In this document: positions 2,850-59,957 of the stretch, piece by piece
Layout: each line of letters begins with the position of its first letter
Numbering within the stretch: position 1 is the stretch's first letter
IMG/VR virus record: IMGVR_UViG_3300047160_003019
Coordinates: 1 to 59,957 of that record
DNA from: a virus
DNA: 59,957 nucleotides
Direction: 5' to 3' (one strand)
Program-made: the position numbers and the translations under genes
The notes under the pieces: generated by a model
Told to the model about the DNA's origin: nothing
Database searches by the model: none
Seen by the model: the letters and a program-made list of their open reading frames with translations, nothing else

Positions 2850-2851
2850 AC

Positions 2852-9121: not shown

Positions 9122-9147
9122 GTCAGGCCAACCGAAGGGAGGACTGA

Positions 9148-9902: not shown

Positions 9903-10088
9903 ATGGCAGACGAACAAGAGGAGTTCGACCCGTTCTCTGTGGGCGGGTTTGCAGAGGCCGATGAGATTGCTCAGCAGGACTATCAGTTTTACATGAAAGC
10001 ACTTCGTCGGCCTCTTAGTAAGACAGAGCGACAGCGTGAACTCGTACAGCGAGCCTGGATGGTTCAGGCCGACCGAAGGGAGGACTGA
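9903..10088 (+). CDS. hypothetical acidic protein (61 aa)
   Basis: GGAG SD. The 3' end carries the initiation cassette of the next gene. Confidence 0.55.
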   Translation: MADEQEEFDPFSVGGFAEADEIAQQDYQFYMKALRRPLSKTERQRELVQRAWMVQADRRED

Positions 10089-10445: not shown

Positions 10446-10446
10446 T

Positions 10447-10470
10447 GGACATGACGCAAGCGTCATGTCC
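10447..10470 (+). terminator. stem-loop GGACATGACG-CAAG-CGTCATGTCC directly after the stop codon
   Basis: 10-bp perfect stem, followed by ATTATTCATT (only moderately T-rich). Confidence 0.4.
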
Positions 10471-10488
10471 ATTATTCATTCGATGAAA
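10466..10488. promoter_or_regulatory. conserved intergenic motif copy TGTCCATTATTCATTCGATGAAA
   Basis: Same layout as the copy at 36123, read on the - strand. It is followed about 10 nt later by CAGTAAATCGGAG and the start codon. Confidence 0.55.
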
Positions 10489-10516
10489 CGCAACGTTCAG
10501 TAAATCGGAGCGAAAG

Positions 10517-10739: not shown

Positions 10740-12077
10740 GTGCAAGTCTCTGCGGATTTCCCCGCACCGTTCCAGATATTGTTTCAACCGCGGCGGTACA
10801 AAGTACTGTATGGAGGGCGCGGTGCGGGAAGATCATGGGCATGCGCCAGGGCTCTGCTTATTAAGGGGACCCAGGCGCCATTACGCGTGCTATGTGCTAG
10901 AGAGTTACAAAATTCGGTCGGGGACTCTGTGCATAGACTACTCGCTGACCAGATTTCTGGACTTGGGCTTGACAGCTTTTACGAAGTCCAAGCATCGAGG
11001 ATCTTGGGGCAGAACGGTACAAACTTCAGCTTTGAAGGAATAAAAAACAACATTACCAAGATCAAGAGTTATGAAGGTATCGACATCTGTTGGGTTGAGG
11101 AGGCTCACAAGGTCAGTCGCAATTCGTGGGGGATACTGATACCAACCGTACGGAAGGAGGACTCCGAAATTTGGATGACCTTCAACCCGGAATTGGAAAC
11201 TGATTATACCTACAAGAGGTTTGTGAAGGAGGCGGATGAAAGTCTTAGTTTAGTCATCAAAACCACCTGGCGAGATAATCCGTTCTTTCCAGACGTGCTG
11301 ATGAAGGAAATGGAGGCTGAAAAGGCTCGAGACTATGACTCGTATATGAACATTTGGGAAGGGTTCTGTCGACAGGTACTAGAAGGGGCAGTTTACGCCA
11401 AAGAACTGCGGAAGGCACAGGAAGAGGGGCGGATCACCAGAGTTCCATGGGGTCGCGAAGCGCCGGTCGATGTGTTCGTGGATTTGGGTCGGGCAGATGC
11501 TACCGCAATGTGGTTCGCGCAGCGGCTTACCATGCAGTATAGGTTGATTGATTTCTATAGTGCGACGGGGGAGGATATAATACACTATATCAAGTATTTA
11601 CAGAACAGGGAATATATTATTGGTAAGGTTTGGTTACCCCACGATGCGTTTGCTAAGCAGCTAGGGAGTAAACGGTCTATACAAGAGATTTTCAAGGAGT
11701 ACGGGTTCAAAATTGAGAGGGTTCCCAAGCTAAGTTTGACGGATGGGATCAATGCTGCCCGCCTAATATTCCCAAACTGCTGGTTTGATGAGGACCGGTG
11801 TGAAGAGGGTATTCAGGCCCTGCGGCATTATCGGTATCGGATCGTTGATGGACAGTACTCAAATGAACCTTTGCATGACAAGGCGTCGGACCCAGCGGAT
11901 GCGTTCCGATACCTGGCGGTTGGGTTCCGTGACCGTCAGACAGGGGTGGCCACCAAGGTTCTGGAGAAGTTGGTGGCTCTGAGTGAGCAGAGGGATCAAA
12001 GGAAGAGGGATGAGTACGATGAGTGGATGATGGGGGGCCGGGAGACTAGGGCACGGGGCACCAGCTGGATGAGATGA
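10740..12077 (+). CDS. terL: terminase large subunit (445 aa, GTG start)
   Basis: Walker A-like YGGRGAGRSW and Walker B-like DICWVEEAH. The C-terminal half carries acidic nuclease-type motifs (VDLG..DAT, HD). Size is right. Confidence 0.9.
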   Translation: MQVSADFPAPFQILFQPRRYKVLYGGRGAGRSWACARALLIKGTQAPLRVLCARELQNSVGDSVHRLLADQISGLGLDSFYEVQASRILGQNGTNFSFEGIKNNITKIKSYEGIDICWVEEAHKVSRNSWGILIPTVRKEDSEIWMTFNPELETDYTYKRFVKEADESLSLVIKTTWRDNPFFPDVLMKEMEAEKARDYDSYMNIWEGFCRQVLEGAVYAKELRKAQEEGRITRVPWGREAPVDVFVDLGRADATAMWFAQRLTMQYRLIDFYSATGEDIIHYIKYLQNREYIIGKVWLPHDAFAKQLGSKRSIQEIFKEYGFKIERVPKLSLTDGINAARLIFPNCWFDEDRCEEGIQALRHYRYRIVDGQYSNEPLHDKASDPADAFRYLAVGFRDRQTGVATKVLEKLVALSEQRDQRKRDEYDEWMMGGRETRARGTSWMR

Positions 12078-13465: not shown

Positions 13466-13495
13466 TAGGCAAACGCGACTGAAAGGAGCGTTTGG

Positions 13496-15793: not shown

Positions 15794-17014
15794 GTGGCTA
15801 ACGGCGATGACAGTGGTAATGCATTAGTACCCGGCGGGATGGGGTCTCAATTTGACCCTGCTTCTATAGCCCTGTCGATGGACCCGGTGTTGAGGAAGAT
15901 CAGTCCATTTGGTCAGCCGTATAACTCATTGAACCCGTTGGGTCTACCGACTGCGCCGTTTGGTACTGAAACTTCTGGGCCAAATGTTATGACGGTCCCC
16001 CCGCACCAGGATTTGCCACCTGGGTCTTTGCCACCAGTTAATCTGATCCCTGGGGGTGCTTTGTCACCAACACGGGCACCGCCAGTTCGCGCAGCGGCCC
16101 CGCCGAATGCGTTGGCCCCAACAGGAGCAGTTGGGGCACCAGCCCCAACTGCTGATCCGGATGCAGGGTTGGTGATGGCGGATGGGACTCCGGTGAGTGT
16201 GGCGAAGCGGTTCATCAGACAGTATGATGCTGGACCGCAAGGGTACAATGCAGCATGGGGGTACAGGTATGGGTTGCCAGCGGGGACTCCAGCCAATGAT
16301 GTTGGGTTCCCGATATTTGAGGGGAGACCGATACCAGATAGTATGTATGGGGGTAAGTACCATGGAATGGTAAGTCATGCGTTTGGGATAGGACAGTTCC
16401 AGGAAGCTACGTGGAGAAGGGCGGCGGAAGGGCTGGCAAAAGAAGGGACGGTTATCAAGGACTACAGTCCGGAAAGTCAGGAGAAAATTAAGACGTGGTT
16501 GCTGATGCATGATGGGATGAGCCACTGGATTGGTGGTGATCCTCCTTATAATGCAGCTATGAAGGCTGCGTACGATGAGTATAAACGGACAGGGAAAGAG
16601 CCTACATTTAGTGGGCCATTAGCGTACTGGGAGCCAGGATATAAGCCTGGAGCGGCCACGTTTTCGAGGCCGTCTGGGGCATCAACTAGGTTGCCATTGT
16701 CTGTGACGGCACCGGAAACCAAACCTGGAACAGAAACGGAAACAAAGCCTGAGCGAGAGTATGATAAGCCGCCGTCACCGGAAGAAATTGAAGGGACAAC
16801 GATTAGATCATTGAGGGGATTGTATCTGCTGAGTATGTTTAATCAGATGGCACAAGGGAGGAAGTTAACTCCTGTGCCAGTAGACTATGACCCTTGGAAG
16901 GTGCGGGAGGTAGCGCGCGGCGGGCAACCTTCAAATTATGGGTTGAGTGTTGGAGTGCAAGGGATTGGGACAGGGGTCGGACCGTTTACTAAGTTCGGTG
17001 TATACGGATCGTAG
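15794..17014 (+). CDS. virion-associated protein with a possible lytic-transglycosylase-like segment (406 aa, GTG start)
   Basis: The N-terminus (M)ANGDD is shared with the next two genes. HAFGIGQFQEATW weakly resembles the SLT GLMQ..T motif. Pro/Ala-rich linkers. Confidence 0.7.
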   Translation: MANGDDSGNALVPGGMGSQFDPASIALSMDPVLRKISPFGQPYNSLNPLGLPTAPFGTETSGPNVMTVPPHQDLPPGSLPPVNLIPGGALSPTRAPPVRAAAPPNALAPTGAVGAPAPTADPDAGLVMADGTPVSVAKRFIRQYDAGPQGYNAAWGYRYGLPAGTPANDVGFPIFEGRPIPDSMYGGKYHGMVSHAFGIGQFQEATWRRAAEGLAKEGTVIKDYSPESQEKIKTWLLMHDGMSHWIGGDPPYNAAMKAAYDEYKRTGKEPTFSGPLAYWEPGYKPGAATFSRPSGASTRLPLSVTAPETKPGTETETKPEREYDKPPSPEEIEGTTIRSLRGLYLLSMFNQMAQGRKLTPVPVDYDPWKVREVARGGQPSNYGLSVGVQGIGTGVGPFTKFGVYGS

Positions 17015-17042
17015 GGTCAAGCGGACGAAAGTGAGCGAGAAG

Positions 17043-18572
17043 ATGGCTAACGGTGACGATCAATATAGTGACCTGAGAGCGGAAGGGCTTGGGACGGAGG
17101 CTGGTAGATATGCCCAAGGCTGGGGCTATGGGTCAGGTGTGTTCAATCCGCTGATGCCGACGCAGCAGAGTACGAACCCGTTAAAACGAATGAGTCCGGA
17201 ACAGGCGGCGGCTATGTATTCGGGAGGGTACGGGCCTGATTTCTTTAGTGCAGAACTGATAAAGAATATGGTACAGGGAATGTATGGGTTGGCGAGTAAG
17301 CCGAGCCAGGTAATATCGGGTGAGTTCCCAGTCAGGCCAGGATCAACTGATGTAAGTGATGTTAAACCGATTACACAGTATGGAGGGGAGTTGGCACTTG
17401 CGGGTATGGGTGTTGGTATGGCCGCGCCTCCGACCAGTGCCGGTATGTTCGCTAGTATCGGATCGAGGACTGCTCGACTGACCCCAGACAGATTTGCTAA
17501 AATTGGATTGGGGGAGGGGTCAGTTGTAGAAGCAATGGATATGGCTAAGAAAGGAATACATAGGGATGAGGTGTTTGCCAGGACTGGATGGTTTCAGGAT
17601 GCAGGTGGCAATTGGTTGTCTATTATAAATGACCGGAATGCAAGGATGAAGTTGCATAATCTGGATAACCTTGGGACTGATCCGAATTATCCCCAGTATG
17701 GGGATCTTTATGGACCTAAAGCGCCAAATATTATGAAGCCGGGGACACAGAAAGTAGGAGATGTATTTGACCATCCAGAGTTGTACGAAGCATATCCGTT
17801 TCTGAAGGACATCCCAATTGAGTATATACCTCCTGAGATGGTAACGGGAGCGGGTGGGTATAGAATGAGTGGAGGTTATCATCCTCCCATGGGTTCAACG
17901 CCTCATAAACTTGCATTGGCACCTAACACCCCAGAGGGTTTACAGAGTGTGTTAGTGCATGAGTTGCAACACGCTATACAATATAGAGAACTGCACGGTA
18001 GAGGCGGAAGCGCAGGGGAGTTTTTACCACCTGGGTTTGAAGAAGGGCTTGCACATCTGGAAAATGGGAAGAATGACATTGAGAATCTTTTCCATCAAGC
18101 TGGATTAGATCCTAATGATGTTCAGCGGTATCATGGGATAGGTCCATATAGCCATTTAGGGCCTGAGAGAGGGTTTTTGAGTCCTATGGAAGAATACCTT
18201 ATGAAAGCAATACCCTCAGATATGATTAAAAGTTATGGTAATCTACTGAACATGCACGATTATGCGTCAATGGTTAATAACCGGGCGTTCAAAGATTATC
18301 TAAATTTGTCAGGGGAAGTTGTATCTAGAGCAGCACAATCACAAGGGGCCTTGAAGGATTGGAGTCAACCACTCTGGAGGATACCAGACTTCACAGGAAC
18401 TATGGGTGTTGGTGGGTATCCTGCGTTTTGGTATCCGGTGGAGTATGGTAATCAGTTATCTATTCATCCATATCGTCCTCCGTATGAAGGAGGCTTACTG
18501 GATCATCCGACTGTCAAGGGTAGAAAACTGCCTGGTATAATACCACCGGGTATGTTTCCAGCGCCAGAATAG
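17043..18572 (+). CDS. HExxH zincin metallopeptidase-like virion protein, paralogue 1 (509 aa)
   Basis: MANGDD start after GAGCGAGAAG. Carries VHELQHAIQ, GWFQDAGGNWLSIINDRNARMKL and YLNLSGEVVSRAAQ. Clearly homologous to the next gene. Confidence 0.8.
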   Translation: MANGDDQYSDLRAEGLGTEAGRYAQGWGYGSGVFNPLMPTQQSTNPLKRMSPEQAAAMYSGGYGPDFFSAELIKNMVQGMYGLASKPSQVISGEFPVRPGSTDVSDVKPITQYGGELALAGMGVGMAAPPTSAGMFASIGSRTARLTPDRFAKIGLGEGSVVEAMDMAKKGIHRDEVFARTGWFQDAGGNWLSIINDRNARMKLHNLDNLGTDPNYPQYGDLYGPKAPNIMKPGTQKVGDVFDHPELYEAYPFLKDIPIEYIPPEMVTGAGGYRMSGGYHPPMGSTPHKLALAPNTPEGLQSVLVHELQHAIQYRELHGRGGSAGEFLPPGFEEGLAHLENGKNDIENLFHQAGLDPNDVQRYHGIGPYSHLGPERGFLSPMEEYLMKAIPSDMIKSYGNLLNMHDYASMVNNRAFKDYLNLSGEVVSRAAQSQGALKDWSQPLWRIPDFTGTMGVGGYPAFWYPVEYGNQLSIHPYRPPYEGGLLDHPTVKGRKLPGIIPPGMFPAPE

Positions 18573-18589: not shown

Positions 18590-20008
18590 ATGAATGGGGA
18601 CGGGTCATACGCAACTGACCGTGGGTATGGGTACGGGTCAGATGTGTTTAATGCACTGGCACCGCCGCCAGCTCGTTCAGCGTTGAGTCCGTTTGCGAAG
18701 CCATTTGTGAATATGAGTCCGGAAGAGGCGTTGGCGGTATATAGTGGTGGGTACGGTCCGGACCCGATGGGTGCTAATATGCTGTGGGGAGCTTTGAAGG
18801 GTTTTGGGAATTTTGTGAGTACGCCGGAACGTATTGTGAGTGGGGAGGCGACACCGTATCCTGGATACTCGAACACGGTTAACCCGGCTGCGTATGCTGC
18901 TGAAATGGCGGGGTATGGGCTCGGGATCGCTGGGTGGGGGCCACGGAATCCTACCAGTATGTTTGGTGGGATTAAAGCGGAAACAGCGAAACAGGTAAGC
19001 CCAGGTGATATTTATTCGGCGGCTAATCCAAATACTAATAAGACGTTGAGAGAGGCTTTGGACTTAGAAATGGCTGGAAAGGATAGGGATGAGGTATTTC
19101 GCGGTACTGGGTGGTATAGATTGCCTGATGGTAACTGGTCTTTTAATATAAATGACCGCCCGGCGAGACTAAATCTGAAGAACTTCGATAGGTATCCAGG
19201 TACGGGTGGTGGCCCTACCCTTTACGGCCTTTCAGCTATGCAGAGGTTGAGAGGAGATGTGAAAGTAGGTGATTTGTATAATAATCCTGAGTTGTATGCA
19301 GCATACCCACATCTAAAGGATATACCAGTTAGAGTGAGCCCTCATTTCGGGCCTAGAGAAGCAAGCTATAACCATAATAATAATACTTTAACGATAGGTA
19401 CTGGTACAACAGCTGATGATTTGATGGACTCATTTGGACATGAGTTGGGACATAGTGTTCAATTCTATGAAGGCTGGGCTAGGGGAGGAGCCCCTATGGA
19501 ATTTAGGCGGCCTAACTTCGGACAAATAGCAGGTCAAGTAACACAGTCTAGAAATACTATGGAGCAGGCTTTTAGAGATGCTGGTATTGAGCCTCTTCAT
19601 GTTCGACAGATCCATGGGTTTGGTGAGTTTATGAGACCTACCGATCTTCCTGGTGTTGATCCTACATATGTAAATTTTATAAAGGGATTAGATCCAGCTA
19701 CAATTGGTCCATATAGAGATCTGATAAATTTTTATAAAGAGTTGGGTATGGAGCAAATAAAATCTAATCAGAGTTATCTCAATTTGGCAGGGGAAGTACA
19801 ATCTAGAGCAATTGAGGCGCAGAGAGCTACTAAGAGATACGATCAGCCACTTTGGGAGATACCAGATGTTGTGGCCTATGATTGGGCAACCAAAAAGCCT
19901 GTTCTTGGTTCTCCAGTACCTTATGAACGACAAATTATCTTTCCGTTTGATAGACCTATAACAGCTGGTGGAGGTTTGCAGCCGTGGTCACCGAAACCGA
20001 ACCCATGA
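18590..20008 (+). CDS. HExxH zincin metallopeptidase-like virion protein, paralogue 2 (472 aa)
   Basis: MNGDG start. Carries GHELGHSVQ, GWYRLPDGNWSFNINDRPARLNL and YLNLAGEVQSRAIE. Confidence 0.8.
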   Translation: MNGDGSYATDRGYGYGSDVFNALAPPPARSALSPFAKPFVNMSPEEALAVYSGGYGPDPMGANMLWGALKGFGNFVSTPERIVSGEATPYPGYSNTVNPAAYAAEMAGYGLGIAGWGPRNPTSMFGGIKAETAKQVSPGDIYSAANPNTNKTLREALDLEMAGKDRDEVFRGTGWYRLPDGNWSFNINDRPARLNLKNFDRYPGTGGGPTLYGLSAMQRLRGDVKVGDLYNNPELYAAYPHLKDIPVRVSPHFGPREASYNHNNNTLTIGTGTTADDLMDSFGHELGHSVQFYEGWARGGAPMEFRRPNFGQIAGQVTQSRNTMEQAFRDAGIEPLHVRQIHGFGEFMRPTDLPGVDPTYVNFIKGLDPATIGPYRDLINFYKELGMEQIKSNQSYLNLAGEVQSRAIEAQRATKRYDQPLWEIPDVVAYDWATKKPVLGSPVPYERQIIFPFDRPITAGGGLQPWSPKPNP

Positions 20009-20012
20009 CCTG

Positions 20013-20351
20013 ATGGTAATGACAATGATAGCGAATGGAGTCTCGACTGGTCAGAGAGCTTGCCACAAGCAAGTACGCGAGATTGCAATGGAGGCCGCTG
20101 GCCAGATGTATCAGAGTTTGATGAGCAATGATATGTATTACAGAGTGTGGCGGGAACAGAACCCAGGGGCCAACGCCCAGCAACTAGAGAAGCGGTTCAT
20201 AGACCGGAACTGGCCCAAGTGCATTGAGTTTGCGAGGGCAACCCTTGTGGAGATGCTGAAGAGGCCGGATATAAGTGAGGAAATGAAAGAGGACATTATG
20301 GACATACTGGAGAAGGACCAGTCACTCCAAGGCAAGATAGTGGTTGGATGA
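20013..20351 (+). CDS. hypothetical protein (112 aa)
   Basis: First ATG after the upstream stop. The longer ORF from 19968 would overlap the upstream gene by 41 nt. Confidence 0.6.
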   Translation: MVMTMIANGVSTGQRACHKQVREIAMEAAGQMYQSLMSNDMYYRVWREQNPGANAQQLEKRFIDRNWPKCIEFARATLVEMLKRPDISEEMKEDIMDILEKDQSLQGKIVVG

Positions 20352-20369
20352 GCGACTGAAAGGAGCGAA

Positions 20370-20392
20370 TTCATTGAATGAATGTTGGCCAT
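20370..20392. promoter_or_regulatory. conserved intergenic motif copy TTCATTGAATGAATGTTGGCCAT
   Basis: Exact core, 2 nt upstream of a TTGACA box. Confidence 0.65.
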
Positions 20393-20394
20393 TA

Positions 20395-20423
20395 TTGACA
20401 CGGTTTCGCAATGGTGGTATGGT
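20395..20423 (+). promoter_or_regulatory. sigma70-type promoter candidate TTGACA-17-TATGGT
   Basis: Perfect -35, 17-nt spacer and a 4/6 -10. About 20 nt upstream of the scaffold gene's SD. Confidence 0.5.
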
Positions 20424-26538: not shown

Positions 26539-26970
26539 ATGACTAGCCAGATCGACCCGACAGTACCGGTGTTCGGGACGCCAACAACTGCCTCGGTCCG
26601 TAATAATTTTTTGATTGCGAAGCGAGAGATTGAGGCGATCCAGGGACTCATTGGAGGGACTCCCTCCGGTAGTTTTGGGCCCCCTATCATAGTTTCGGGT
26701 TCTGGTCCGATTGCGTTGCCGTCGAGTGCAAACTACTTCGTTTTTGTGGGTAACACTACAGGCGGTCCGATAAGCTCAGCACTCCCAGCTGCTGGCCTTG
26801 TGTTGGGACAACAGATCATCATAAAAGATACCCTCGGAAACGCTGGGACTTTCAACATTACGGTGACTGCTTCGGCTGGGATTGATGGTTTCCCCACATA
26901 CGTTCTGGTAGCCAACTATATGTCAGTGTCACTGGTGTGGATGGGAGGAAGTGGGTGGGGCACCTTCTGA
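26539..26970 (+). CDS. small fibre-like paralogue 3 (143 aa)
   Basis: The N-terminus IDPTVPVFGTPTTASVRNNFLIAKREIEAIQ is typical of phage fibre N-termini, from memory. Also carries LPAAGLVLGQQIIIKDTLGNAGTFNITV. Confidence 0.7.
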   Translation: MTSQIDPTVPVFGTPTTASVRNNFLIAKREIEAIQGLIGGTPSGSFGPPIIVSGSGPIALPSSANYFVFVGNTTGGPISSALPAAGLVLGQQIIIKDTLGNAGTFNITVTASAGIDGFPTYVLVANYMSVSLVWMGGSGWGTF

Positions 26971-26992
26971 TGAGCGACTGAAAGGAGCGAAT

Positions 26993-35649: not shown

Positions 35650-35839
35650 GTATCCCACCAGTGGACCGCTCGAATATTTCTGCGAACTCTTCAATAGGCA
35701 TCTTGAGTATGTAGTTGGTAGGTTCTCTAGCGGTTCGTGTTGATATAACTACCATGATCTTCTTGGGGCCTAATACATGCACTCTAGTGATGTATATGGG
35801 GTTTATAAGTTCTCCTGTTGCTAGTGCTATCAGCTTCAT
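35624..35839 (-). CDS. hypothetical protein (71 aa); last leftward gene
   Basis: ATGA coupling to the upstream gene. The 3' end overlaps the convergent gene by 26 nt. Confidence 0.6.
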   Translation of the reverse strand: MKLIALATGELINPIYITRVHVLGPKKIMVVISTRTAREPTNYILKMPIEEFAEIFERSTGGIPIGELPPV

Positions 35840-36090
35840 AGCTTGAGCCCCATTGATTTCCTATGGTCTGTAAAGGTTTGCTGCTCAAGAACAGCTCTCC
35901 CAGCCATTGTTATGCCCCATATCCGTAAACGGACTGGGGTGCGGTGGCCGTGGAACGCACTGAAGTCGCGGGCCAGGCCCATAGTCACCAACCGCTGAAC
36001 TCGTGCGATCTCATCATCGTCCATCTCAGGAGCCGCCAGCGGTCGCGGTTGGAGCTTGGACAACATCTTGAAGTCCTGCTTGGTTATCAC
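35836..36090 (-). CDS. hypothetical protein (84 aa), possibly winged-helix
   Basis: SD GGAG within the AGTAAATCGGAG cassette. Confidence 0.65.
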   Translation of the reverse strand: MITKQDFKMLSKLQPRPLAAPEMDDDEIARVQRLVTMGLARDFSAFHGHRTPVRLRIWGITMAGRAVLEQQTFTDHRKSMGLKL

Positions 36091-36122
36091 ATGATTTACT
36101 CCGATTTACTGGACAAAGACGT

Positions 36123-36145
36123 TTCATTCGATGAATGATGGCCAT
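36123..36145. promoter_or_regulatory. conserved intergenic motif copy TTCATTCGATGAATGATGGCCAT
   Basis: Intergenic, about 33 nt upstream of the ATG at 36090. Confidence 0.6.
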
Positions 36146-39757: not shown

Positions 39758-40954
39758 TTATTCATCCCTCTTCTCGGTATCCGATTTGGCAGTGCGGAGA
39801 CGTTTCCAAGCCACATCGTTTGTGAGAATGGAGCCCAGGAACCCCAAACCTTTCGGTAGCTCAGGGTAGAGTGAGTGCCATGCCAACATAGTATCATCCC
39901 CCATGTTGTTTGGTATCCCTAAGATTTTCATCAGGTATTGTATGTCATAGATACCATTCTGAAAAGATTTAGGAATGGGCGAAGCCAGCATCTCCCATAC
40001 CAAACGCCAGACTTGGACTTCTTCCTCTACAGACCAATAAGAAGTGACCCGTTTGCCATTACGTTCGGGATAGATGACAACGTAACCCGCACCGCGCTTG
40101 ACTCGGTGCGGCCCAAACGGGATCACTAGACTATCATCTGAGCTTCGAGCGAACCCACAGGTGTCAATCATTCCGCCACTAGTCTCAACATCAATCGTGA
40201 GAGACGCTGGCGGACTCGCCAGCGTCTCCCTGATCCATTGCTCGACCTCTTGCAGGGTTGGATTGATTATAATCTGGCGAGAGGGACGGCGTATCTCAGG
40301 GTATTCAGACTCACGGTACGCCTTGATGTAGTCCGCAATAATGATGGGGCGCCGACTCCACATCCCCTCATACAGCAGTGACGCCGGATGGAATGTGGGG
40401 AGACATTTGACTCCATACGTCTCAGACCATGTGGTGGTCCCGCGGAGGGCTGTGATGTTGGTCATACCAAGCATAGCCCAGCAAGCAGTGTTACCCATCA
40501 AACAACAAACGTTTGGTTTCAGTACCGATATGTCTCGGCCCAACCGTTCCAACTGATCCAGGTACTCTGGCCGCAAGTAGCGACCTTTATTAATAGGGGG
40601 GTACGGGTAATTGGCTCCACCAACTTCAGACTTTGTCCCTGATATTGCGCCCAGATCGTTGTTGGGGGGTCGCATGTTAAGGACGTTAGTGAAACCGATC
40701 CCTGCTGCGTGCATCCACTCGTCTCGTTGTCGAACCCACGCCAGCATCCCATAGTCCCAGGAGATTTCGCGTTGGGCTTTAGCATGAAGGTCTGGATAGA
40801 CATCTGGGAAAGCCTCCCCTAGCATACCCCAATGCATCTTACCACTACCACCCACCAGCGGCATCTTCATCTTGTCCTCATCAGCTCCCCACGCCTCCCC
40901 GATCATCAGCATCTTTGGGTTTGGTGGCCCTGAGTATCCCGGAAGGAGGGACAT
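39758..40954 (-). CDS. UDG-like domain fused to a DnaQ-type 3'-5' exonuclease (398 aa); the N-terminal part of a split family A polymerase
   Basis: UDG family-4-like motifs MIGEAWGADED and TFHPASLL. Exonuclease motifs LTIDVETSG (ExoI) and FQNGIYDIQYL (ExoII). Confidence 0.8.
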   Translation of the reverse strand: MSLLPGYSGPPNPKMLMIGEAWGADEDKMKMPLVGGSGKMHWGMLGEAFPDVYPDLHAKAQREISWDYGMLAWVRQRDEWMHAAGIGFTNVLNMRPPNNDLGAISGTKSEVGGANYPYPPINKGRYLRPEYLDQLERLGRDISVLKPNVCCLMGNTACWAMLGMTNITALRGTTTWSETYGVKCLPTFHPASLLYEGMWSRRPIIIADYIKAYRESEYPEIRRPSRQIIINPTLQEVEQWIRETLASPPASLTIDVETSGGMIDTCGFARSSDDSLVIPFGPHRVKRGAGYVVIYPERNGKRVTSYWSVEEEVQVWRLVWEMLASPIPKSFQNGIYDIQYLMKILGIPNNMGDDTMLAWHSLYPELPKGLGFLGSILTNDVAWKRLRTAKSDTEKRDE

Positions 40955-42291
40955 TACAATGTCCCTCCTTCTCGCTTTGAGCCTCTAAAAAGGCGAGCTT
41001 CTTTCAGCTTGAGGCGAGCACTCTTACAGTACCCTTCATTGATCTCCAGTCCCAGCACGGTTTTGGCTCCCAACGCCTCAGCGGCTCGGAGAGACGAGCC
41101 GCTTCCACAGGTAGGATCAAGCATGGTTGTGTGCCCGTCCACTAACATACCCATAAAATACTTCAGCATGGCTTCTGGCTTGGTTGACGGGTGTATCTGG
41201 GTGTCCACTGGACACGCGAATACATCTGACAGCACCTTGAGGATGAACCGGTTACGAGTCCCCAACATGCAGGTATCATAGACGTGCTTGGGCCGTCGCC
41301 TATAGTCAGGCGTTATGCCTGACTCAGCATGAACCCAAATGAGTGGGTGGGGTATCCACATCACACCACCGATACGACTCAGATAGCGTTCTACCTCGGC
41401 CCGGTTCTTGTCGGAGTACCAGAACATGATGTGTCCTGACATCTCGAATAGTCGAGATATGTTATTGACGAAACAATCGAGTAGTAAGGTTGCGGTTTCG
41501 GCTGAGTCTTCATAAAAGGTATGCTCATTGCCCTGTCCAACCGGGCCGTCGGCAACACCGATCCCATACGGGAAGTCACAATGGATAAAGTTGAAGCGGG
41601 GACCGTCATAGGTTGGTGCCCAATCCAAGAAGGAACTATTGAGTATGGCATTGTCGGCATTGGATGTGTCCAGTTCCTCTGGTGCAGGTTTCCGTCTCAG
41701 GAAGACTGACATATCATGGCTGCGTTTGCGGGACTCAGTGCGCTCGATCATGGTGAGCGCCTCAGTCATAGTTTTGCATTCTGCAACCCGACTATCAGAG
41801 AGTTTCTCTGCAATTTTGAGATGGTTGGTGACAACGGCGGGGACCACTGACAGGCTCTCAGCCGTGTCGATCTGTTTCCAACTTGGATCCAGTTGCGTTC
41901 TGAGTTGGTGAATACGGTTGGTGGCCGCGGCGGACTCCTGCCACGTCAGGTCTTTCCGCTTGATATTCTCTTCCAACTCAACGATCTGAAGCTCGATGGG
42001 ACTCAAATCTGTTGTGTACCGTACTGGGACGGAGTCCCATCCTAGATTTTTGCAAGCGGTGTACCGTCGCTCGCCAGCAACCAGTACGTTATCCGGGTTG
42101 ATGATTATGGGGTTGAGCAGGCCCAGGGTTCGGATGGACTCTTGGAGTCCGTTCAGGTCATCTACCTTTTTGCGCTGGCGCTCATCTCGGTTTATGACTA
42201 TTGCGTCAATGGGGAGTCGCAGCACGTCATCCATTATAACGGACATAACTTTCAGTTCCCTGTCAAAAAGAGAAGGGGTGCCAGATGGCAC
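40954..42291 (-). CDS. ParB-like nuclease domain fused to a beta-class N6A/N4C DNA methyltransferase (445 aa)
   Basis: ParB N-domain GLLNPIIINPDNVLVAGERRYTAC. Motif IV HCDFPYG precedes motif I LDPTCGSGSS. Confidence 0.85.
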   Translation of the reverse strand: MPSGTPSLFDRELKVMSVIMDDVLRLPIDAIVINRDERQRKKVDDLNGLQESIRTLGLLNPIIINPDNVLVAGERRYTACKNLGWDSVPVRYTTDLSPIELQIVELEENIKRKDLTWQESAAATNRIHQLRTQLDPSWKQIDTAESLSVVPAVVTNHLKIAEKLSDSRVAECKTMTEALTMIERTESRKRSHDMSVFLRRKPAPEELDTSNADNAILNSSFLDWAPTYDGPRFNFIHCDFPYGIGVADGPVGQGNEHTFYEDSAETATLLLDCFVNNISRLFEMSGHIMFWYSDKNRAEVERYLSRIGGVMWIPHPLIWVHAESGITPDYRRRPKHVYDTCMLGTRNRFILKVLSDVFACPVDTQIHPSTKPEAMLKYFMGMLVDGHTTMLDPTCGSGSSLRAAEALGAKTVLGLEINEGYCKSARLKLKEARLFRGSKREGGTL

Positions 42292-43917: not shown

Positions 43918-44886
43918 TCAGTAGTCTAGCCTCTCGAAGGTTGGGTCCCACACCCTACGCTTGTACTGGGTTTTTAGTAGTAAGTTGGCTGCGTTGGTGG
44001 AGGGTGCTGCGCACACCTGGCGGAAGGGGCAGCCGCCATACATACCGCAAGCACTATCGTTCATCGGCCAATTGTCATGGAAGGCGCAATCTTCCAGCTG
44101 TTCCAACCAGAACCCCAGGTTGCGATGCCACTCGTCCAACATGGAGTCAGTACGTTGGACGATACCACGGGCGAAGACAGAGAACGATTGGACAACCTGG
44201 CAAGCATCAACCAGTATGCCTTCTGTGTCAACGCCGAATGCATTGCGGGCTGCGATAGTGTAGATAGTAAATTGGTTGTCAGGTGTGAACTTGGCAAACC
44301 AATACTCACCAATGGTGTGTTGGGTAGTTTTAACGTCTGTAACGTACCGCGCCCCATTAAGTTCACCTATGCGGTCAAGGCGACCGCATAGGATGAACTC
44401 CTCACCGGTGGTTGCGGACTTGTAACCGGTCCCAATGCGGAACGGGAGTTCGACCGCCAGACGGTCCGAATTACCGACACGGACTGTTTGGATCGGGTCA
44501 TCTTGGTACTTATCCAAGTACCATACTATGGTTCGGATTAGGGTGTACCGATTCTTGGCCTTGTTGTCAGAGTCCCAGGGTCTGTTCCGTTCCTTGTCCC
44601 AGGTCTCGATCATGATCTGTTTTATGACTTCCAGCTGGGCTTCACGGTGCGCCAGCTGGTTGTTGAGACGGAGGGTCCAATACAACTCAACGGCACGGTG
44701 AAGCATGGTCCCGAATGTCAGGTGGACAGATTCCATTGCGGGTTGGAACCCATAGACTATGCTATAGTAGTAACGCCTCGGGCAGACCTTGAACTCATTG
44801 AGGCTACTGGAGTCCAGAAAGGTTTGCAGCATCTTGTTGGCCTTCGAGAACGAACCGTTCTCAAAGGTCTCAAAGGGGAAACTCAT
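43918..44886 (-). CDS. Cas4/RecB-like PD-(D/E)XK exonuclease with a Cys4 cluster (322 aa)
   Basis: N-terminal CPRRYYY, YVTDVKTT (D-x-K) and C-terminal CGMYGGCPFRQVC. Confidence 0.85.
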   Translation of the reverse strand: MSFPFETFENGSFSKANKMLQTFLDSSSLNEFKVCPRRYYYSIVYGFQPAMESVHLTFGTMLHRAVELYWTLRLNNQLAHREAQLEVIKQIMIETWDKERNRPWDSDNKAKNRYTLIRTIVWYLDKYQDDPIQTVRVGNSDRLAVELPFRIGTGYKSATTGEEFILCGRLDRIGELNGARYVTDVKTTQHTIGEYWFAKFTPDNQFTIYTIAARNAFGVDTEGILVDACQVVQSFSVFARGIVQRTDSMLDEWHRNLGFWLEQLEDCAFHDNWPMNDSACGMYGGCPFRQVCAAPSTNAANLLLKTQYKRRVWDPTFERLDY

Positions 44887-45158
44887 GACGGTTTCCTAAC
44901 CAAACCCAGCTGGGCTGCACTAGTTAGTCTTTTAGGTGGTCCGATGGGTGCCGAAGGCGATGCGGATGGCTGTCGGACTCGGACTTGTCTGACGGTTTCG
45001 GTGGCTGCCAACCGATCTCGCAACTCTTGCATGTGAGTTACGATGTCCATCAGGGACTCCCCCAGAGTTTCCGGGTCGCGGGAGAATAGCTCCTGGAGCG
45101 ACAGCCGATCCACCTGACGAAGTGCGTTGGACTGAGGGATGGGATAGTCATCAGACAT
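44883..45158 (-). CDS. small early protein (91 aa) ending in LTSAAQLGLVRKPS
   Basis: The start at MSDDYP overlaps the upstream stop. Carries the shared C-terminal motif. Confidence 0.7.
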   Translation of the reverse strand: MSDDYPIPQSNALRQVDRLSLQELFSRDPETLGESLMDIVTHMQELRDRLAATETVRQVRVRQPSASPSAPIGPPKRLTSAAQLGLVRKPS

Positions 45159-45390
45159 CTTCCAACTCCTCTTCATCATCCTCCAGGTCGAAGTCTTGGG
45201 CAGTGTGTTCGGCAATCCGCTGGCGGAGTTCCATCACACCTTGGTGGATGTATTCGCGGCAGACATGACCACATCCGACTCTTCGATGCCTCGGGGCACC
45301 AGCCCCGAAATAGCGTTCCAAGAACTCCCAATCTTCGTCATATATTAAGACGTGACGTGGAGTTGTTGGTCGATCAGTCTTCTTTACCAT
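45151..45390 (-). CDS. possible ribbon-helix-helix protein with an acidic tail (79 aa)
   Basis: RHVLIYDEDWEFLERYF looks like an RHH strand-helix. The C-terminus is DFDLEDDEEELEDV. Confidence 0.6.
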   Translation of the reverse strand: MVKKTDRPTTPRHVLIYDEDWEFLERYFGAGAPRHRRVGCGHVCREYIHQGVMELRQRIAEHTAQDFDLEDDEEELEDV

Positions 45391-45661
45391 GCTCGTTCCC
45401 TTCGGTCACTCGCTCCTCCTCTGTCGGCCGCTTGAACTGGTGATAGATGGCGACACCAGAGGATTTGATACTGATAATTAGGTCTTGTAGAAGTGGTTCC
45501 TTCTGCTTCGCCCTGTTCAGATACTCTATTAGGAGTTCTGGTTCGTCAGACATGACTAGGAGCCCGACCTCGGGGTATTCAGTGGCCAATGCCTCCATCA
45601 TCAGTGTTTGGAGGGCTGCTAGCTGTTGGGCGCCTTCAGCCCAGCTGATCTTTTCACCCAT
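45374..45661 (-). CDS. hypothetical protein (95 aa)
   Basis: The AGTAAATCGGAGCGAAG cassette lies before the ATG. Confidence 0.7.
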   Translation of the reverse strand: MGEKISWAEGAQQLAALQTLMMEALATEYPEVGLLVMSDEPELLIEYLNRAKQKEPLLQDLIISIKSSGVAIYHQFKRPTEEERVTEGNEHGKED

Positions 45662-45726
45662 CTTCGCTCCGATTTACTAGAAGTCGCTCAGCTTTTTTGC
45701 CTAATGAAGGAACAAATCGTGAACGA

Positions 45727-46182: not shown

Positions 46183-46212
46183 ATTTTAACATATGTCATG
46201 GGCGCGTGTCAA
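46183..46212 (-). promoter_or_regulatory. sigma70-type promoter candidate TTGACA-18-TAAAAT
   Basis: Perfect -35, 5/6 -10. The motif copy abuts the -35 box. Confidence 0.55.
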
Positions 46213-46234
46213 TGGCCATCGTTCATTCAATGAA
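46213..46234. promoter_or_regulatory. conserved intergenic motif copy (- strand reads TTCATTGAATGAACGATGGCCA)
   Basis: Exact core, immediately upstream of the TTGACA box. Confidence 0.65.
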
Positions 46235-46238
46235 ATTA

Positions 46239-46274
46239 ATTGAAGAGTCACACACTTGTGTGTGACTCTTCAAT
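46239..46274 (-). terminator. 16-bp perfect stem-loop ATTGAAGAGTCACACA-CTTG-TGTGTGACTCTTCAAT overlapping the stop of the gene at 46270
   Basis: Exact inverted repeat. On the - strand it is followed by TAATTTCATT. Confidence 0.5.
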
Positions 46275-46476
46275 CCTCTTCGTCCTCTCCAACTAACCAA
46301 CTCCCCGGTGGCCTCCCATTAATATCAATCTTGAGCCCACCCCTCCGCAGCTGTTCTTCAACTTCATCCGCGACACGCGACGGTAGTGCAGTCCGCATAC
46401 CGCGGCGGCCCAACTGTGAGGTACTTATACAGTACCTCACAGCCTCTTCAATTATCCTTCGCAACATATCATTCAT
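46270..46476 (-). CDS. hypothetical protein (68 aa)
   Basis: ATGA-type overlap with the upstream gene. Confidence 0.6.
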   Translation of the reverse strand: MNDMLRRIIEEAVRYCISTSQLGRRGMRTALPSRVADEVEEQLRRGGLKIDINGRPPGSWLVGEDEED

Positions 46477-56250: not shown

Positions 56251-56646
56251 TTACTTGCGTTTTAGCCCCAATTGGGCGGCGCTAGTTAACGGTCCTTTAT
56301 TGACAGGTGCCGCTGCGCGAACTGGCGGTTCATTGGCGGTGCGCAGCAGCCCCTGCCCGGATGTGTAAGGGCGTGCATGTTTGGTATAGTATTCACCAGC
56401 AGGCCGCGCGTTCTTGATTGGTAGTTTGTAATACGGTGCGTCTGCTGGCCGTGCCCTGTTGATGGCGGTCTCGAATGCCATCAACAGTCCGCCCATACCG
56501 ATACCGCCGTGGATGAGTGGGGATGGGTCCGCAGTGAATATGAACTGTCCGTTGCGGTCAAGGATTGCGAGGTCACCGGACTCGAGGGGGACCACAATAC
56601 AGGAACAGGTGGAAAGAGCGGCTAGAGCTTCTTCTTTCGGGGTCAT
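56251..56646 (-). CDS. small early protein (131 aa) ending in LTSAAQLGLKRK
   Basis: Start set at MTPKEE. Carries the shared C-terminal motif. Confidence 0.7.
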   Translation of the reverse strand: MTPKEEALAALSTCSCIVVPLESGDLAILDRNGQFIFTADPSPLIHGGIGMGGLLMAFETAINRARPADAPYYKLPIKNARPAGEYYTKHARPYTSGQGLLRTANEPPVRAAAPVNKGPLTSAAQLGLKRK

Positions 56647-56810: not shown

Positions 56811-57497
56811 TTACCTCAATTCGTATGCGGTTCGCTCGTTGATGAAATCTTCTGATGCGTTAATGAAGGTTGGCTCGATCCAAACCTGACGCACCTGAGC
56901 ACGTCCAGTTCCGACGCGGGCATTACGGATGTGCCCGCGACGAAGATGCGGACGGGGAGAGGCGTGATGTCCACCACCTGGCTCAAGAGATGAGGCAGGT
57001 GGGGTTCTGAGGATAACAGTTCGATAGATGCCACGTTTCGCGGCCTTTCCGATACCGAGACGTGCGGCCTTATGGAGTTTCTCTTCTCGGATGACGTTGC
57101 GGGTGGCGAGGGCTACGATCAGGAACTGATATGCGTTGGCCGCACATATTGATCCCATATCAGAATTATTTTTGTTAAGGGTATGTGTTACATCTTTCCA
57201 TCCGTCGCGGTTCTCGGTCTCTATAAAGTAACCCTCGAACTTGTAATTGGTGAACTTTATTTTGGTTAACCAGCGGGATAATCTGTAGTTGGCCTCATCT
57301 TGCAGACGAGATCCCCATCCCTCAAGCACAACATTGAGAAATATGTTTGTGGGGCCAACGATGTCAAAGTCTGGGTATGGTGGCCTAGCAATACCGAGCG
57401 TTACCATGTCATCCCAAGTTGCTTTGACCTCTTCAACAGAGAAGGCCTTGATAAAGGCCTCAGAGATGATGAACTCGGTGCGATCGAACCTGCTCAT
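56811..57497 (-). CDS. hypothetical protein (228 aa)
   Basis: ATGA overlap with the upstream gene and an AAGGTGG SD. Confidence 0.75.
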   Translation of the reverse strand: MSRFDRTEFIISEAFIKAFSVEEVKATWDDMVTLGIARPPYPDFDIVGPTNIFLNVVLEGWGSRLQDEANYRLSRWLTKIKFTNYKFEGYFIETENRDGWKDVTHTLNKNNSDMGSICAANAYQFLIVALATRNVIREEKLHKAARLGIGKAAKRGIYRTVILRTPPASSLEPGGGHHASPRPHLRRGHIRNARVGTGRAQVRQVWIEPTFINASEDFINERTAYELR

Positions 57498-58006
57498 GGG
57501 GCCACCTTTTTGATCCCGAGTTGGGAGGCGGATTGGATACGGCCCTTAATGAGATTGCCCCTGGTGTCAAACTTGCGAGATTTCGGAGGCCCCGCGTCTG
57601 CACGGGCTTCCGAAATGCAGAAGGGGCAATTGGATTGGAGTTTGGTTTTGGCTGAGCGTCCACTGTGGTTTTCCCAGTGACGAATTTGGGCCTCGGTTGG
57701 GTGCCCATCTTCACCCAAACACATGACCTCATCATGAAGGATGAGTTCCCGCCGGAACTCAAGGATGCGGCGTAGGGACTCAAGGTCATTGATTTGGACA
57801 ACATGACGGAGAGGTGAACCCTTCTCATGGAGTTCAGCCTGAATGTGACCTGTGGATGGGTTGAGGGTCACAAAGATATAGAGCTGTGGTGGGTGCTTCG
57901 ACTTCGGACTGAGATGGTCCGAAGTCGTAACGCGCAGCGGCTCCTGATTGGGTTTGGTCTTTTTGTGCCGAGCGACTGATAAGGAGCGAGAGGAGCGAGA
58001 GGGCAT
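57494..58006 (-). CDS. early protein (170 aa) ending in IQSASQLGIKKVAP
   Basis: CCTTGGAGTAACCCAATG start cassette. Carries the shared C-terminal motif. Confidence 0.75.
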   Translation of the reverse strand: MPSRSSRSLSVARHKKTKPNQEPLRVTTSDHLSPKSKHPPQLYIFVTLNPSTGHIQAELHEKGSPLRHVVQINDLESLRRILEFRRELILHDEVMCLGEDGHPTEAQIRHWENHSGRSAKTKLQSNCPFCISEARADAGPPKSRKFDTRGNLIKGRIQSASQLGIKKVAP

Positions 58007-59250: not shown

Positions 59251-59310
59251 ATCAACTCCTGGGGTTGGCGCGGTTAGTGGGGGCAACCGCTGGTTTGCTA
59301 GTGGGCCGAA

Positions 59311-59341
59311 GGCCATGTTTCATTGAATGAATGATGGCCAT
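59311..59341. promoter_or_regulatory. full palindromic version of the conserved motif: GGCCAT-GT-TTCATT-G-AATGAA-TG-ATGGCCAT
   Basis: Both half-sites carry the GGCCAT flank. Lies about 60-90 nt upstream of the first early start codon. Confidence 0.65.
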
Positions 59342-59399
59342 GGTTGCAAACGTTCGCAAACGTTTGGTGGGTACGTTATCAAATGTAAGGGTGGAATGC

Positions 59400-59599
59400 A
59401 AGGGGTTTACGTTCATACATCAAAGGACGAACGTTCGGGTCAGGGTGTTCAGTAGGTGGGTGGGGTACTGTGCTCCCCCTCCCCCTCCCTTCCCTTCTCT
59501 TAGTAGTATAAAAAAAAAAATAGAAAGAAACTAAGAGAATAACGCAGTAATAGCGGGAATTACTGGAGGGGGTGTGAGATGTATGAACGTAAACCCCTT
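59400..59599. repeat. 22-bp perfect inverted repeat (AAGGGGTTTACGTTCATACATC at 59400-59421 and its reverse complement at 59578-59599) bracketing 156 bp
   Basis: Exact reverse complements. The interior holds a polypyrimidine tract, an A11 run and the CGAACGTTCG palindrome. Confidence 0.85.
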
Positions 59600-59643
59600 A
59601 TATTCCATTGGTACATTAGATAATGTTTACCCTAACATTAGAT

Positions 59644-59904
59644 CAGACTGCACACCAATCAATTACTGCACCTTTCGTTCACGATTTGTTCCAATCTCAG
59701 GCACAAAAAAAGCCCGGGGAGCCAACTGCGGCTCCCCGGCTTCATTCATACTAAGTGAGTTGAGTTGAGTTGGTAAGTAAAATCAGACTGCACACCGCTT
59801 CGCGCCAAATACTATGAAGGCAGACTGCACACCAAATAAAAAACAGACTGCACACCAATCTTTTGGAGTAAACCAAAGGTTTACTCCAAAATCAGACTGC
59901 ACAC
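59644..59904 (+). repeat. array of five perfect 13-bp direct repeats CAGACTGCACACC (59644, 59783, 59820, 59843, 59892)
   Basis: Exact copies, all in the same orientation, in a gene-free region. Confidence 0.9.
59705..59739 (-). terminator. rho-independent terminator for the short leftward operon (1454 to 48)
   Basis: 10-bp GC-rich stem CCGGGGAGCC/GGCTCCCCGG with a 6-nt loop, followed on the - strand by T7. Confidence 0.6.
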
Positions 59905-59957
59905 CGATTAAAAGGGCTGGCGGCCCGCAGGGGCAGTGGGAGGATGGGGCTCACGCC
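59860..59957. repeat. second copy of the terminal overlap (identical to 1-98)
   Basis: Verbatim identity. Confidence 0.9.

Follow-up and report, generated by a model that had tools for sequence, protein, structure and literature searches.

The window analysed here is the whole of the IMG/VR virus record IMGVR_UViG_3300047160_003019 (positions 1 to 59,957; 59,957 nt), in which a palindromic motif, TTCAT-NNN-ATGAA-N3-TGGCCA, is repeated between genes. The motif is real, non-random and intergenic, it is under purifying selection in related phages, and a clade-specific variant of the same architecture exists. Nucleotides 1-97 are an exact repeat of 59861-59957, and this 97-nt terminal repeat indicates that the contig is a closed circle and complete, at about 59,860 bp. 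The genes are arranged in two large blocks and one small unit. The rightward block (about 2.2-35.6 kb) consists of an accessory PEP-CTERM gene, a group of unknown genes, the large terminase (10740-12077, plus strand), a P22-like portal (13496-15790, plus strand), and scaffold, capsid and tail genes. As a moron, the PEP-CTERM gene hints at a Gram-negative host that has an exosortase. The leftward block, read from 59.25 to 35.6 kb, contains early genes, among them those for an ArdC-like protein, a UvrD helicase, a PD-(D/E)XK nuclease, a ParB_N-methyltransferase fusion, a UDG-like protein, a DUF3987 protein and DNA polymerase A. The small unit runs leftward and is located at 1454-32.

The core of the motif is a 13-bp palindrome of 5-3-5 geometry, TTCAT-NNN-ATGAA, and a TGGCCA box, often part of the palindrome ATGGCCAT, follows one arm after three bases. 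An earlier, sequence-only reading of the window had described the core as 6-1-6; the inverted repeat is real, but the centre comprises three variable bases (TGA, TCA, TCG, CGA, TGG, CCG and CGG in the window and its relatives) between fixed arms. Fixed arms around a free centre are what is expected if a dimer contacts two half-sites. The 22-mer occurs at exactly seven sites in the window. With up to three mismatches the pattern TTCATTSRATGAATNNTGGCCA gives eight matches, which correspond to the same seven sites because the one at 59311-59341 scores in both orientations; 0.01 matches were expected from 100 shuffles. In a weight matrix built from the seven sites these score 37-45 bits, and all other positions of the window remain below 12 bits, with the sole exception of the second orientation of the 59.3-kb site (19.8 bits). 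All seven copies had been listed in the sequence-only reading, and both the pattern and the weight-matrix scans recovered them. They were also correctly described there as intergenic: each lies within the 6.9% of the genome outside the set of open reading frames (ORFs), for which the chance is 0.069^7, or about 7e-9, and the only other core-like match, TTCATTATATGAA at 33984, is within a gene and lacks the flank. The extended boxes show a similar placement, TGGCCAT being intergenic in seven of nine occurrences and ATGGCCAT in five of five.

The copies are distributed as follows. Copy 1 (2032-2053, minus strand), with the distal arm TTTAT, lies within the divergent control region 1455-2200 and is preceded on the minus strand by a 15-bp hairpin. 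Copy 2 (3186-3207, plus strand) follows a terminator with a 13-bp stem and U7 tail; a TTGACA hexamer is found 11 nt downstream (3219-3224), with a weak -10 element, TCCAAT, at 3242-3247. Copy 3 (10466-10487, minus strand) has the flank TGTCCA, and the ATG at 10517, which opens a small gene and the large terminase, is located 29 nt past the core on the plus strand. Copy 4 (20370-20391, plus strand) is separated by 3 nt from the TTGACA-17-TATGGT promoter downstream, which serves the scaffold and capsid genes. Copy 5 (36123-36144, plus strand) has its flank distal to the gene, and its core ends 32 nt upstream of the GTG at 36090 of a minus-strand gene for a predicted winged-helix protein; the start codon given earlier for this gene was a misreading, as the ATG found there is followed by TGA. 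Copy 6 (46213-46234, minus strand) comes directly after a terminator with a 17-bp stem and abuts the -35 box of a TTGACA-18-TAAAAT promoter. Copy 7 (59310-59341, plus strand; core 59319-59331) reads AGGCCAT-GT-TTCATTGAATGAA-TGA-TGGCCAT, its right flank being good and its left one a weaker mirror image; it precedes the first leftward gene (ATG 59250) by 68 nt. The flank box faces the gene in copies 2, 4 and 6 and faces away from it in copies 3 and 5; this mixed orientation relative to the downstream gene argues for an element acting at the level of DNA, not RNA.

Boxes of the TGGCCAT or ATGGCCAT type without a core are present at 1994, at 2113 and in the spacer of the promoter at 58632. The stretch 1994-2013, previously taken for a degenerate copy, proved to be a half-site, (C)TGAAT-AA-TGGCCAT, in a separately conserved box (CAAAACACYATGGCCA): the half-site GAATAATGGCCAT at 1994-2006 (minus strand) is contained in ACAAAACACTATGGCCAT, and this box is kept in the relatives L150, L152 and L154. 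A second half-site remnant, ATTATGGCCAT, at 2110-2120 (plus strand), aligns with a complete motif and TTGACA promoter upstream of the homologue of gene 2202 in L029 and L034, where an extra TGGCCA box (ccATGGCCATcc), a second ATGGCCAT, lies inside the spacer of this promoter. The surrounding control region, 1455-2200, is long, non-coding and divergent, with conserved counterparts at L150 3946-4709, L152 9403-10000 and L154 3043-3677. It contains a G-tract, GGGGGGGTAGGGGGGGCGA, followed by TATAAAAAA-like runs and repeated CAAAACACYATGGCYA boxes, to which L152 and L154 add tandem half-sites, TTTCATCCG. In simpler relatives this region directly precedes the homologue of the gene at 3757; in the window the two are separated by a PEP-CTERM gene pair (2202-3172, closed by the terminator 3155-3184) and an ORF (3353-3760).

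A metagenome scan returned 28 matches to the motif, 11 of which are fragments of phages 67-79% identical to the window in nucleotide sequence. At the homologous sites 59311, 20370 and 36123 of fragments with 70-79% identity to the window, the 22-mer is 91-100% identical, whereas the 60-nt flanks reach only 16-67%. Site 59311 is conserved at 100% in L026, L043 and L028 (flanks 16-49% identical), but its left flank is not kept in any of these three, the relatives that conserve the site, so that they lend no support to the two-sided form as the master operator it had been supposed to be. At site 36123 the motif of L033 and L045 is 95% identical, with flanks of 40-53%, and at site 20370 the motif, the 3-nt gap and the TTGACA box are all kept in L039. 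The copies of L030 and L048 occupy intergenic gaps other than those of the window, which indicates that sites turn over. More distant relatives from unrelated samples, namely L152/L153 and L154 (homologue of the 3757 protein 63-64% identical) and L159, carry TTCAT-NNN-ATGAA-N3-TGGCC. In L152/L153 and L154 one copy precedes the 3757 homologue by about 140 nt, with a hairpin and a TTGACA-16/17 promoter coming after it; the gap from motif to -35 box is 35 nt in L152 and L154. Intact TTCAT copies are present in L152 and L154, and L150 has only degenerate ones, including the equivalent of copy 1.

The sister clade is represented by IMGVR_UViG_3300010376_000040, a syntenic contig of 54.6 kb with a portal 83% and a capsid protein 93% identical to those of the window. 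No TTCAT copy was found in it; instead, TTTGA-NNN-TCAAA-(A/G)GG-TG(G/T)G(T/C)(G/A) is present at seven intergenic sites, one with a flipped centre, and variants of the TTTGA motif with other centres occur in L009, L011, L055, L056, L057, L125, L137 and L160. Position by position, both motif types are built of a 13-bp 5-3-5 palindrome, three bases and a hexamer starting with TGG. The sister-clade copies are located 2-50 nt from start codons, and no -35/-10 elements come after them. The same architecture with a clade-specific sequence is the pattern expected of a phage regulator that co-evolves with its operators. Together with the footprints described above, it bears out the earlier description of an operator-like element at the boundaries of transcription units, of a form suited to a dimeric DNA-binding protein. 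In the sister-clade relative two shorter genes, each directly preceded by the clade motif, share about 160 residues (36-39% identity) with the 881-residue product of the ORF at 4408-7053 (plus strand) of the window, which has no Pfam, PHROG or GenBank-phage match.

A de novo search for 5-3-5 palindromes covered about 160 loci, in which pairs are common by chance. At least three copies of one arm were found only in the window and in IMGVR_UViG_3300010376_000040 (contig and sub-loci), apart from two other repeats: CAGTT, three times in L013, and TCGCC, seven times as a tandem-like cluster in L098. The latter, on an unrelated contig of the capsid family (L098 8748-10389), consists of seven copies of ctaaRctcgggRTCGCCTAKGGCGAtt with spacings that are mostly multiples of about 126 nt. 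The more distant L155 has a different repeat, GGCTGGCGAAGCC, clustered at its control region.

The 5-3-5 palindrome is typical of bacterial dimeric regulators, and the motif could accordingly be read as the site of a host transcription factor or nucleoid protein, tying the phage programme to host physiology. This is very improbable. The full pattern TTCATTSRATGAAYNNTGGCCA gave one exact match in 185,579 bacterial and archaeal species, one genome being scanned for each and the TGGCCA flank being required; a single match at chance level across so many species makes a common host-factor site unlikely. Moreover, related phages, some from the same soil project, use TTTGA and TTCAT arms in the same architecture, and different arms in related phages are more easily explained by a phage-encoded partner. 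A relaxed pattern run against 2.9 million viral contigs of IMG/VR gave only single background matches. Compared by eye, the consensus sequences of IHF, FNR/CRP, ARG-box, LexA and CtsR do not fit the motif, a comparison that serves as a lead only.

A role outside transcription is given hardly any probability. Such an element might be a nicking site, a recombination hot spot, a replication or packaging signal, or a target of methylation-dependent marking by the ParB_N-methyltransferase (40954-42291). The site positions shift among close relatives (L030, L048), and the phage does encode a ParB_N and N6/N4 methyltransferase, both of which agree with this proposal. Against it stand the strictly intergenic position of the copies and their close association with terminators, -35 boxes and start codons, which point to transcription, and the frequency of TGGCCA alone within genes (27 of 36 occurrences). 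An origin would more plausibly be sought in the iteron-like repeats at 59639-59908. The fusion itself (minus strand) joins a ParB N-terminal domain to an N6/N4 DNA methyltransferase and is kept in the relatives L158 and L162.

Directly preceding the motif, strong hairpins (-19 to -29 kcal/mol, z about -4.5) occur at four of the seven copies, 3186, 46213, 2032 (minus strand) and 10466 (plus strand), so that the terminator-like hairpins reported in the sequence-only reading are a feature of these four and not of the other three. The intrinsic terminator 5' of copy 2 is located at 3155-3184 (plus strand; -21 kcal/mol, z = -4.4) and that 5' of copy 6 at 46238-46275 (minus strand; 17-bp stem, -29 kcal/mol, z = -4.9). 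A 14-bp terminator-like hairpin at 10443-10474 (plus strand; -22 kcal/mol, z = -4.6) uses the flank of copy 3 as its 3' arm, which accounts for the deviant TGTCCA at 10466. The usual order along transcription is terminator hairpin, core, and then promoter or gene start. A protein bound directly after a terminator would also block read-through and thereby insulate the units from one another.

The same arrangement allows the motif to be seen as part of termination or RNA processing, the T-rich 5' arm (TTTCATT) providing the hairpin before it with a U-tract and the weak core hairpin acting as an RNase or stability element. The core is indeed the first sequence past the stem in all four of the copies that start right after strong hairpins, and the relatives L026, L028 and L039 have the same hairpin-then-motif layout. 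Nevertheless, this reading has a very low probability: (i) three window copies, as well as those of L033, L043 and L045, have no hairpin; (ii) a U-tract needs neither an exact palindrome nor a TGGCCA box conserved at 91-100%; (iii) the core as RNA would form only five A-U-rich pairs; (iv) the orientation of the flank is mixed relative to transcription. The motif itself is not a terminator hairpin; it supplies a T-rich tail after a strong hairpin in four copies and does not in the other three.

Five host-type promoters are recognizable in the window, and three of them (46212, 20395 and 3219) have the motif just upstream. Two of these are sigma70-type promoters with a TG extension: TTGACA-18-TAAAAT at 46183-46212 (minus strand), serving the DNA-metabolism operon and corresponding to TTGACA-17-TATAAT in L054, and TTGACA-17-TATGGT at 20395-20423 (plus strand), serving the scaffold and capsid genes. 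The third, at 3219, is weaker and belongs to copy 2. The earlier TTGACA distances of 11, 3 and 0 nt after the copies at 3186, 20370 and 46213 were reproduced. The remaining two promoters, TTGACA-17-TACAAT at 50850 and TGGACA-17-TAAAAT at 58632, have no full motif, the latter carrying its TGGCCA box in the spacer. The motif had also been proposed to be a promoter element itself; neither reading direction offers a -35/-10 hexamer pair of suitable spacing (16-18 bp) within it or anchored on it, its orientation relative to genes is not constant, and distinct promoters of the form TTGACA-17/18-TAnnnT lie downstream at differing distances. As a sigma70 promoter (TGGCCA as -35 or CATNAT as -10) it was rejected, since a plausible partner hexamer exists at copy 3 only (TGGACA-18-CATTAT). 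A sigma54 (-24/-12) site does not agree with the spacing and the GC element. A promoter of a T7-like single-subunit RNA polymerase was set aside on account of the palindromic core, the mixed flank orientation and the absence of an RNA polymerase family match in Pfam and PHROGs among about 60 proteins scanned, where the 881-residue ORF 4408-7053 matched nothing at all and might just conceivably encode a very divergent enzyme.

Comparable activator systems are the dyad at about -55 of P2/186 late promoters (Ogr/B) and Mu Mor/C. By analogy, a phage-encoded dimer could recruit host RNA polymerase through the alpha C-terminal domain (alpha-CTD) or sigma region 4 to the promoter downstream and switch on the middle and late operons. 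The motif is just upstream of the -35 box, with its centre at about -51 to -62, at three copies of the window and in L029, L034 and L039, and the structural-gene promoter carries the motif. Activation is nonetheless judged unlikely. The linked promoters already possess a consensus -35 and a good -10, the gap to the -35 box is 0, 3, 11 or 35 nt without helical phasing, and the asymmetric flank is found in mixed orientation relative to the gene. At copies 3 and 5, and at those of L030, L033 and L045, a downstream promoter would not fit (23-32 nt from core to start codon), and the sister-clade copies are not followed by promoter elements. A class I or Ogr-type activator site, which needs a phased, fixed distance and a poor -35, was rejected: the gaps are variable and the TTGACA is consensus.

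These features favour negative control instead. Near-consensus linked promoters (TTGACA-17/18 with TAAAAT or TATGGT and an extended TG) should need no activator, and gaps to the -35 that vary from 0, 3 and 11 nt in the window to 35 nt in L152 and L154 show no phasing. Several copies lie over or just past the presumed start region. The start codon comes 29-32 nt after the core in copies 3 and 5, where a promoter could only be upstream of the motif or overlap with it; with L033 and L045 included, the distance is 24-32 nt. At copy 3, a TGGACA-18-CATTAT pair would place the transcription start within the core. The extra TGGCCA boxes inside promoter spacers, at 58632 and, as ccATGGCCATcc, in L029 and L034, point in the same direction.

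Past the core of copies 3 and 5, at a distance of 10-11 nt, the sequence-only reading had noticed a common element, CAGTAAATCGGAG. It is present at 10498 and 36099, but the motif is missing at a third copy (45667) and relatives do not keep the element; it is a shared leader or ribosome-binding-site (RBS) module. Such modules of 13-30 nt form families of near-identical sequences reused before unrelated genes (CAGTAAATCGGAG, GATGAGCGACTGAAAGGAGCGAAT and TCAGGCCRACCGAAGGGAGGACTGAATG) and are located at 10498-10510, 36099-36111 (minus strand), 45667-45679 (minus strand), 20347-20370, which equals 26969-26992, and 13470-13493, with further copies at 9123-9150 and 10064-10091 and, on the minus strand, at 46697, 50381 and 54457.

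Taken as a whole, the evidence on the motif favours a multi-copy operator to which a dimeric regulator, encoded by the phage and co-evolving with its sites, would bind with mainly negative action, a reading held with a little more than even confidence; we infer that a protein binds, which protein it is, and in which direction it regulates. A phage-encoded protein would bind as a dimer on the palindrome, and the TGGCCA box would be contacted by the same complex or by a second dimer. With copies at the joints of transcription units, after the upstream terminator and then before the -35 of a strong sigma70 promoter or over the -10, +1 or leader, the bound protein would occlude or roadblock host RNA polymerase, and most operons could be switched together. 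A dual repressor and activator role, as in phi29 p4, is conceivable.

The best candidate for the binder is the product of 35836-36090 (minus strand), a predicted PadR/MarR-like winged-helix protein of 84 residues with 14 homologues and no Pfam match. Its AF2 model (pLDDT 68) consists of helix, helix, beta-wing and helix, and the best Foldseek matches are all PadR/MarR regulators (query TM-score, TMq, 0.6-0.7; E about 1e-2). A motif copy is located directly upstream of this gene in the window, L033 and L045, and directly downstream of its homologue in IMGVR_UViG_3300010376_000040, L055, L056 and L057; in L160 it overlaps the 3' end of the gene. Counted by relative, the gene is linked to a copy in five of nine, from both clades, and the L160 overlap makes a sixth. 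The putative recognition helix differs by motif clade, QRLV..GLARDF versus Q(D/E)LV..GYARDF, and the wing is invariant.

The sequence-only reading, which did not list this protein, had suggested three others. The helix-turn-helix (HTH) protein at 3757-4398 (plus strand), with its helix at about residues 77-97 and weak HTH_3 and Hin matches, is conserved across the family, and in simpler relatives its homologue heads the rightward operon beside the conserved control region. Its putative recognition helix, ITGYSPxYISxxK, is almost invariant in 96 homologues, including those of phages with TTTGA or GGCTG motifs, and its one variable position is R in the window and V in L152, though both have the same motif. 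The protein probably binds something conserved family-wide rather than the motif, and as a specificity determinant it is disfavoured. The Myb-like protein at 7885-8130 is a real ORF with a weak Myb match; it is disfavoured, since no homologue was found in any relative examined, including L150, L152 and L154, which cover the syntenic region, and two of these, L152 and L154, keep intact TTCAT copies. The small protein at 45151-45390 (minus strand), with a ribbon-helix-helix (RHH)-like sequence pattern, is still an unverified candidate: its AF2 pLDDT is 61, Foldseek gave no match, and the best PDB profile match has E=0.057. Clade-specific differences occur in its putative strand, but homologues with the window-type strand RH[VIL]xIYDEDW are encoded in L143-L146 and L149, where no TTCAT/TTTGA palindrome was seen in 9-12 kb, so that the strand gives no independent support for this candidate.

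Several observations weigh against the repressor-operator reading and its candidate. The strong promoters at 50850 and 58632 do without the full motif. A single repressor for early, middle and late operons would be more in keeping with a temperate phage, and Pfam scans of about 60 proteins gave no integrase, recombinase or ParA match, about 25 small ORFs lying outside the scan and many ORFs being unannotated. In the 40 kb seen of a close relative, IMGVR_UViG_3300010358_000004 (polA 87% and winged-helix protein 72% identical), the only copy is a degenerate one; its promoter is kept, and no motif copy is present at two other homologous junctions. No copy adjoins the winged-helix gene in L054, L158, L159 and L161, the only copy of L159 being about 5 kb away. 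Confidence in the winged-helix model is moderate at the pLDDT and Foldseek E values given above, the putative recognition helix begins with an acidic run, DDDE, and the half-sites, with 8 bp between their centres, leave little room for two helix-turn-helix units. Finally, the correlation of motif type with the candidate is confounded by phylogeny, because every candidate regulator co-varies with the clade.

Known regulators offer several points of comparison. PadR/MarR repressors are dimeric winged-helix proteins that act on inverted repeats at or near promoters, and the model of the 35836-36090 product matches this fold; however, the candidate has only 84 residues and no Pfam match, it is without the ligand or dimerisation domain typical of MarR, and the half-sites of known PadR/MarR operators are usually more widely spaced. 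The phi29 protein p4 is a small dimer with inverted-repeat sites next to host-type promoters, some of which it represses and others of which it activates in the early-to-late switch; unlike the window motif, its sites are few and confined to one control region, and protein and motif are unrelated. The C1 repressor of P1, a non-integrating phage, controls many operons through more than ten dispersed operators, which are 17 bp long and asymmetric, some of them bivalent. The scattered sites of the window resemble these, and the two-sided copy at 59311-59341 recalls the bivalent operators. Cluster O mycobacteriophages (Corndog and relatives) carry a repeat, 5'-TGTTCGG-NNN-CCGAACA, in more than 30 copies per genome, the binder of which has not been identified (PMC4351075). 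Like the window motif, it has invariant inverted arms and a variable 3-bp centre, it is dispersed mostly in intergenic positions or near gene starts, and it occurs in genomes with promoters of the host SigA type. In contrast, its arms are of 7 bp, against 5 bp in the window, its copies exceed 30 and it has no asymmetric flank box, whereas the window motif has a TGGCCA box and seven copies at terminator-promoter joints. The resemblance is in form only, with no sequence or phylogenetic relationship.

Stoperators of Cluster A mycobacteriophages, bound by the L5 gp71 repressor, are asymmetric, monomer-bound, present in many copies and placed mainly in one orientation relative to transcription in temperate phages, whose repressor is accompanied by an integrase or parABS (PMC6550527, PMC9283540). 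On the operator reading, the window shares with them one regulator with many dispersed intergenic sites, and a motif and regulator that diverge together among related phages. It differs in its palindromic core, mixed orientation and seven copies, and no lysogeny genes were found among the roughly 60 proteins scanned. An extension of the operator reading would make the motif and its sister variant genome-wide, immunity-like repressor operators in a large family of uncultivated podoviruses with a P22-type portal and no integrase, a palindromic counterpart of stoperators at terminator-promoter joints. This is held to be improbable. If it were true, the immunity-like system would shut down almost all operons at once and insulate them, for instance in a carrier or plasmid-like state, and the clade-specific specificities of operator and regulator would define immunity groups.

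The region next to copy 7 is rich in further repeats. Directly past the motif, at 59344-59367, TTGCAAACGTTCGCAAACGTTTGG consists of tandem or palindromic AAACGTT boxes with a LacI/PurR-like look; relatives have different palindromes at this place, such as ATGGCCACGATAACGTGGCCAT in L026, which suggests a second, fast-evolving operator. Inverted repeats of 49 nt, 84% complementary (59373-59421 and 59578-59626), surround a 156-nt segment with a long polypyrimidine run, CCCCCTCCCCCTCCCTTCCCTTCTCTT, and an A11 tract. The non-coding stretch beyond contains five to six iteron-like direct repeats, (A)ATCAGACTGCACACC, at 59639-59908 (and 28-48), adjoining a strong minus-strand terminator at 59714-59739; the region may be a replication origin. 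A 34-nt repeat (82%) with TCGTTCACGATTTGTTCC is shared by this origin-like region (59675-59708, plus strand) and, in inverted form, by the gap before gene 45374-45661 (45693-45726). Elsewhere, the 11-13-mer CCGCTGCGCGAAC and its complement recur five to seven times, mostly within genes (3409, 11516, 16088, 47491, 53793, 53822, 56309 and 57931), including a 24-nt inverted pair (16078-16101 and 56306-56329) that is 96% complementary, and GCCCCTGCGGGC recurs six times in the window.

Among the proteins, 16947-18572 and 18590-20008 (plus strand) are adjacent paralogues, both with an LPD23 domain, and contain DNA stretches 76-86% identical (17190/18713 and 18296/19774). Three otherwise unrelated proteins, 732-1454, 44883-45215 and 57494-58006 (all minus strand), have a common C-terminal peptide, SA(A/S)Q(L/F)G(L/I)(V/K)(R/K)(K/R/V)(P/A), which may be a docking motif for a host protein and which we take to resemble a sliding-clamp-binding motif. 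Most of the early proteins have no family in PHROGs or Pfam, and Rfam and tRNA scans of the entire window gave nothing. The GenBank phage collection holds no close isolate according to near-identical nucleotide and protein searches, and in IMG/VR more than 130 contigs encode a capsid protein 71-95% identical to that of the window.

In itself, the motif is the kind of regulatory element expected of a phage dependent on host RNA polymerase. The element is real, lineage-specific and operator-like, belonging to a familiar class in a new family, and its candidate binder is plausible. It maps the transcription units of an uncultivated soil phage family and provides a candidate regulator/operator pair with two natural specificity variants, the TTCAT type and the TTTGA type. 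If the binder is confirmed, this pair would be useful for following the drift of operator specificity in phages and as a source of small orthogonal repressor/operator parts.

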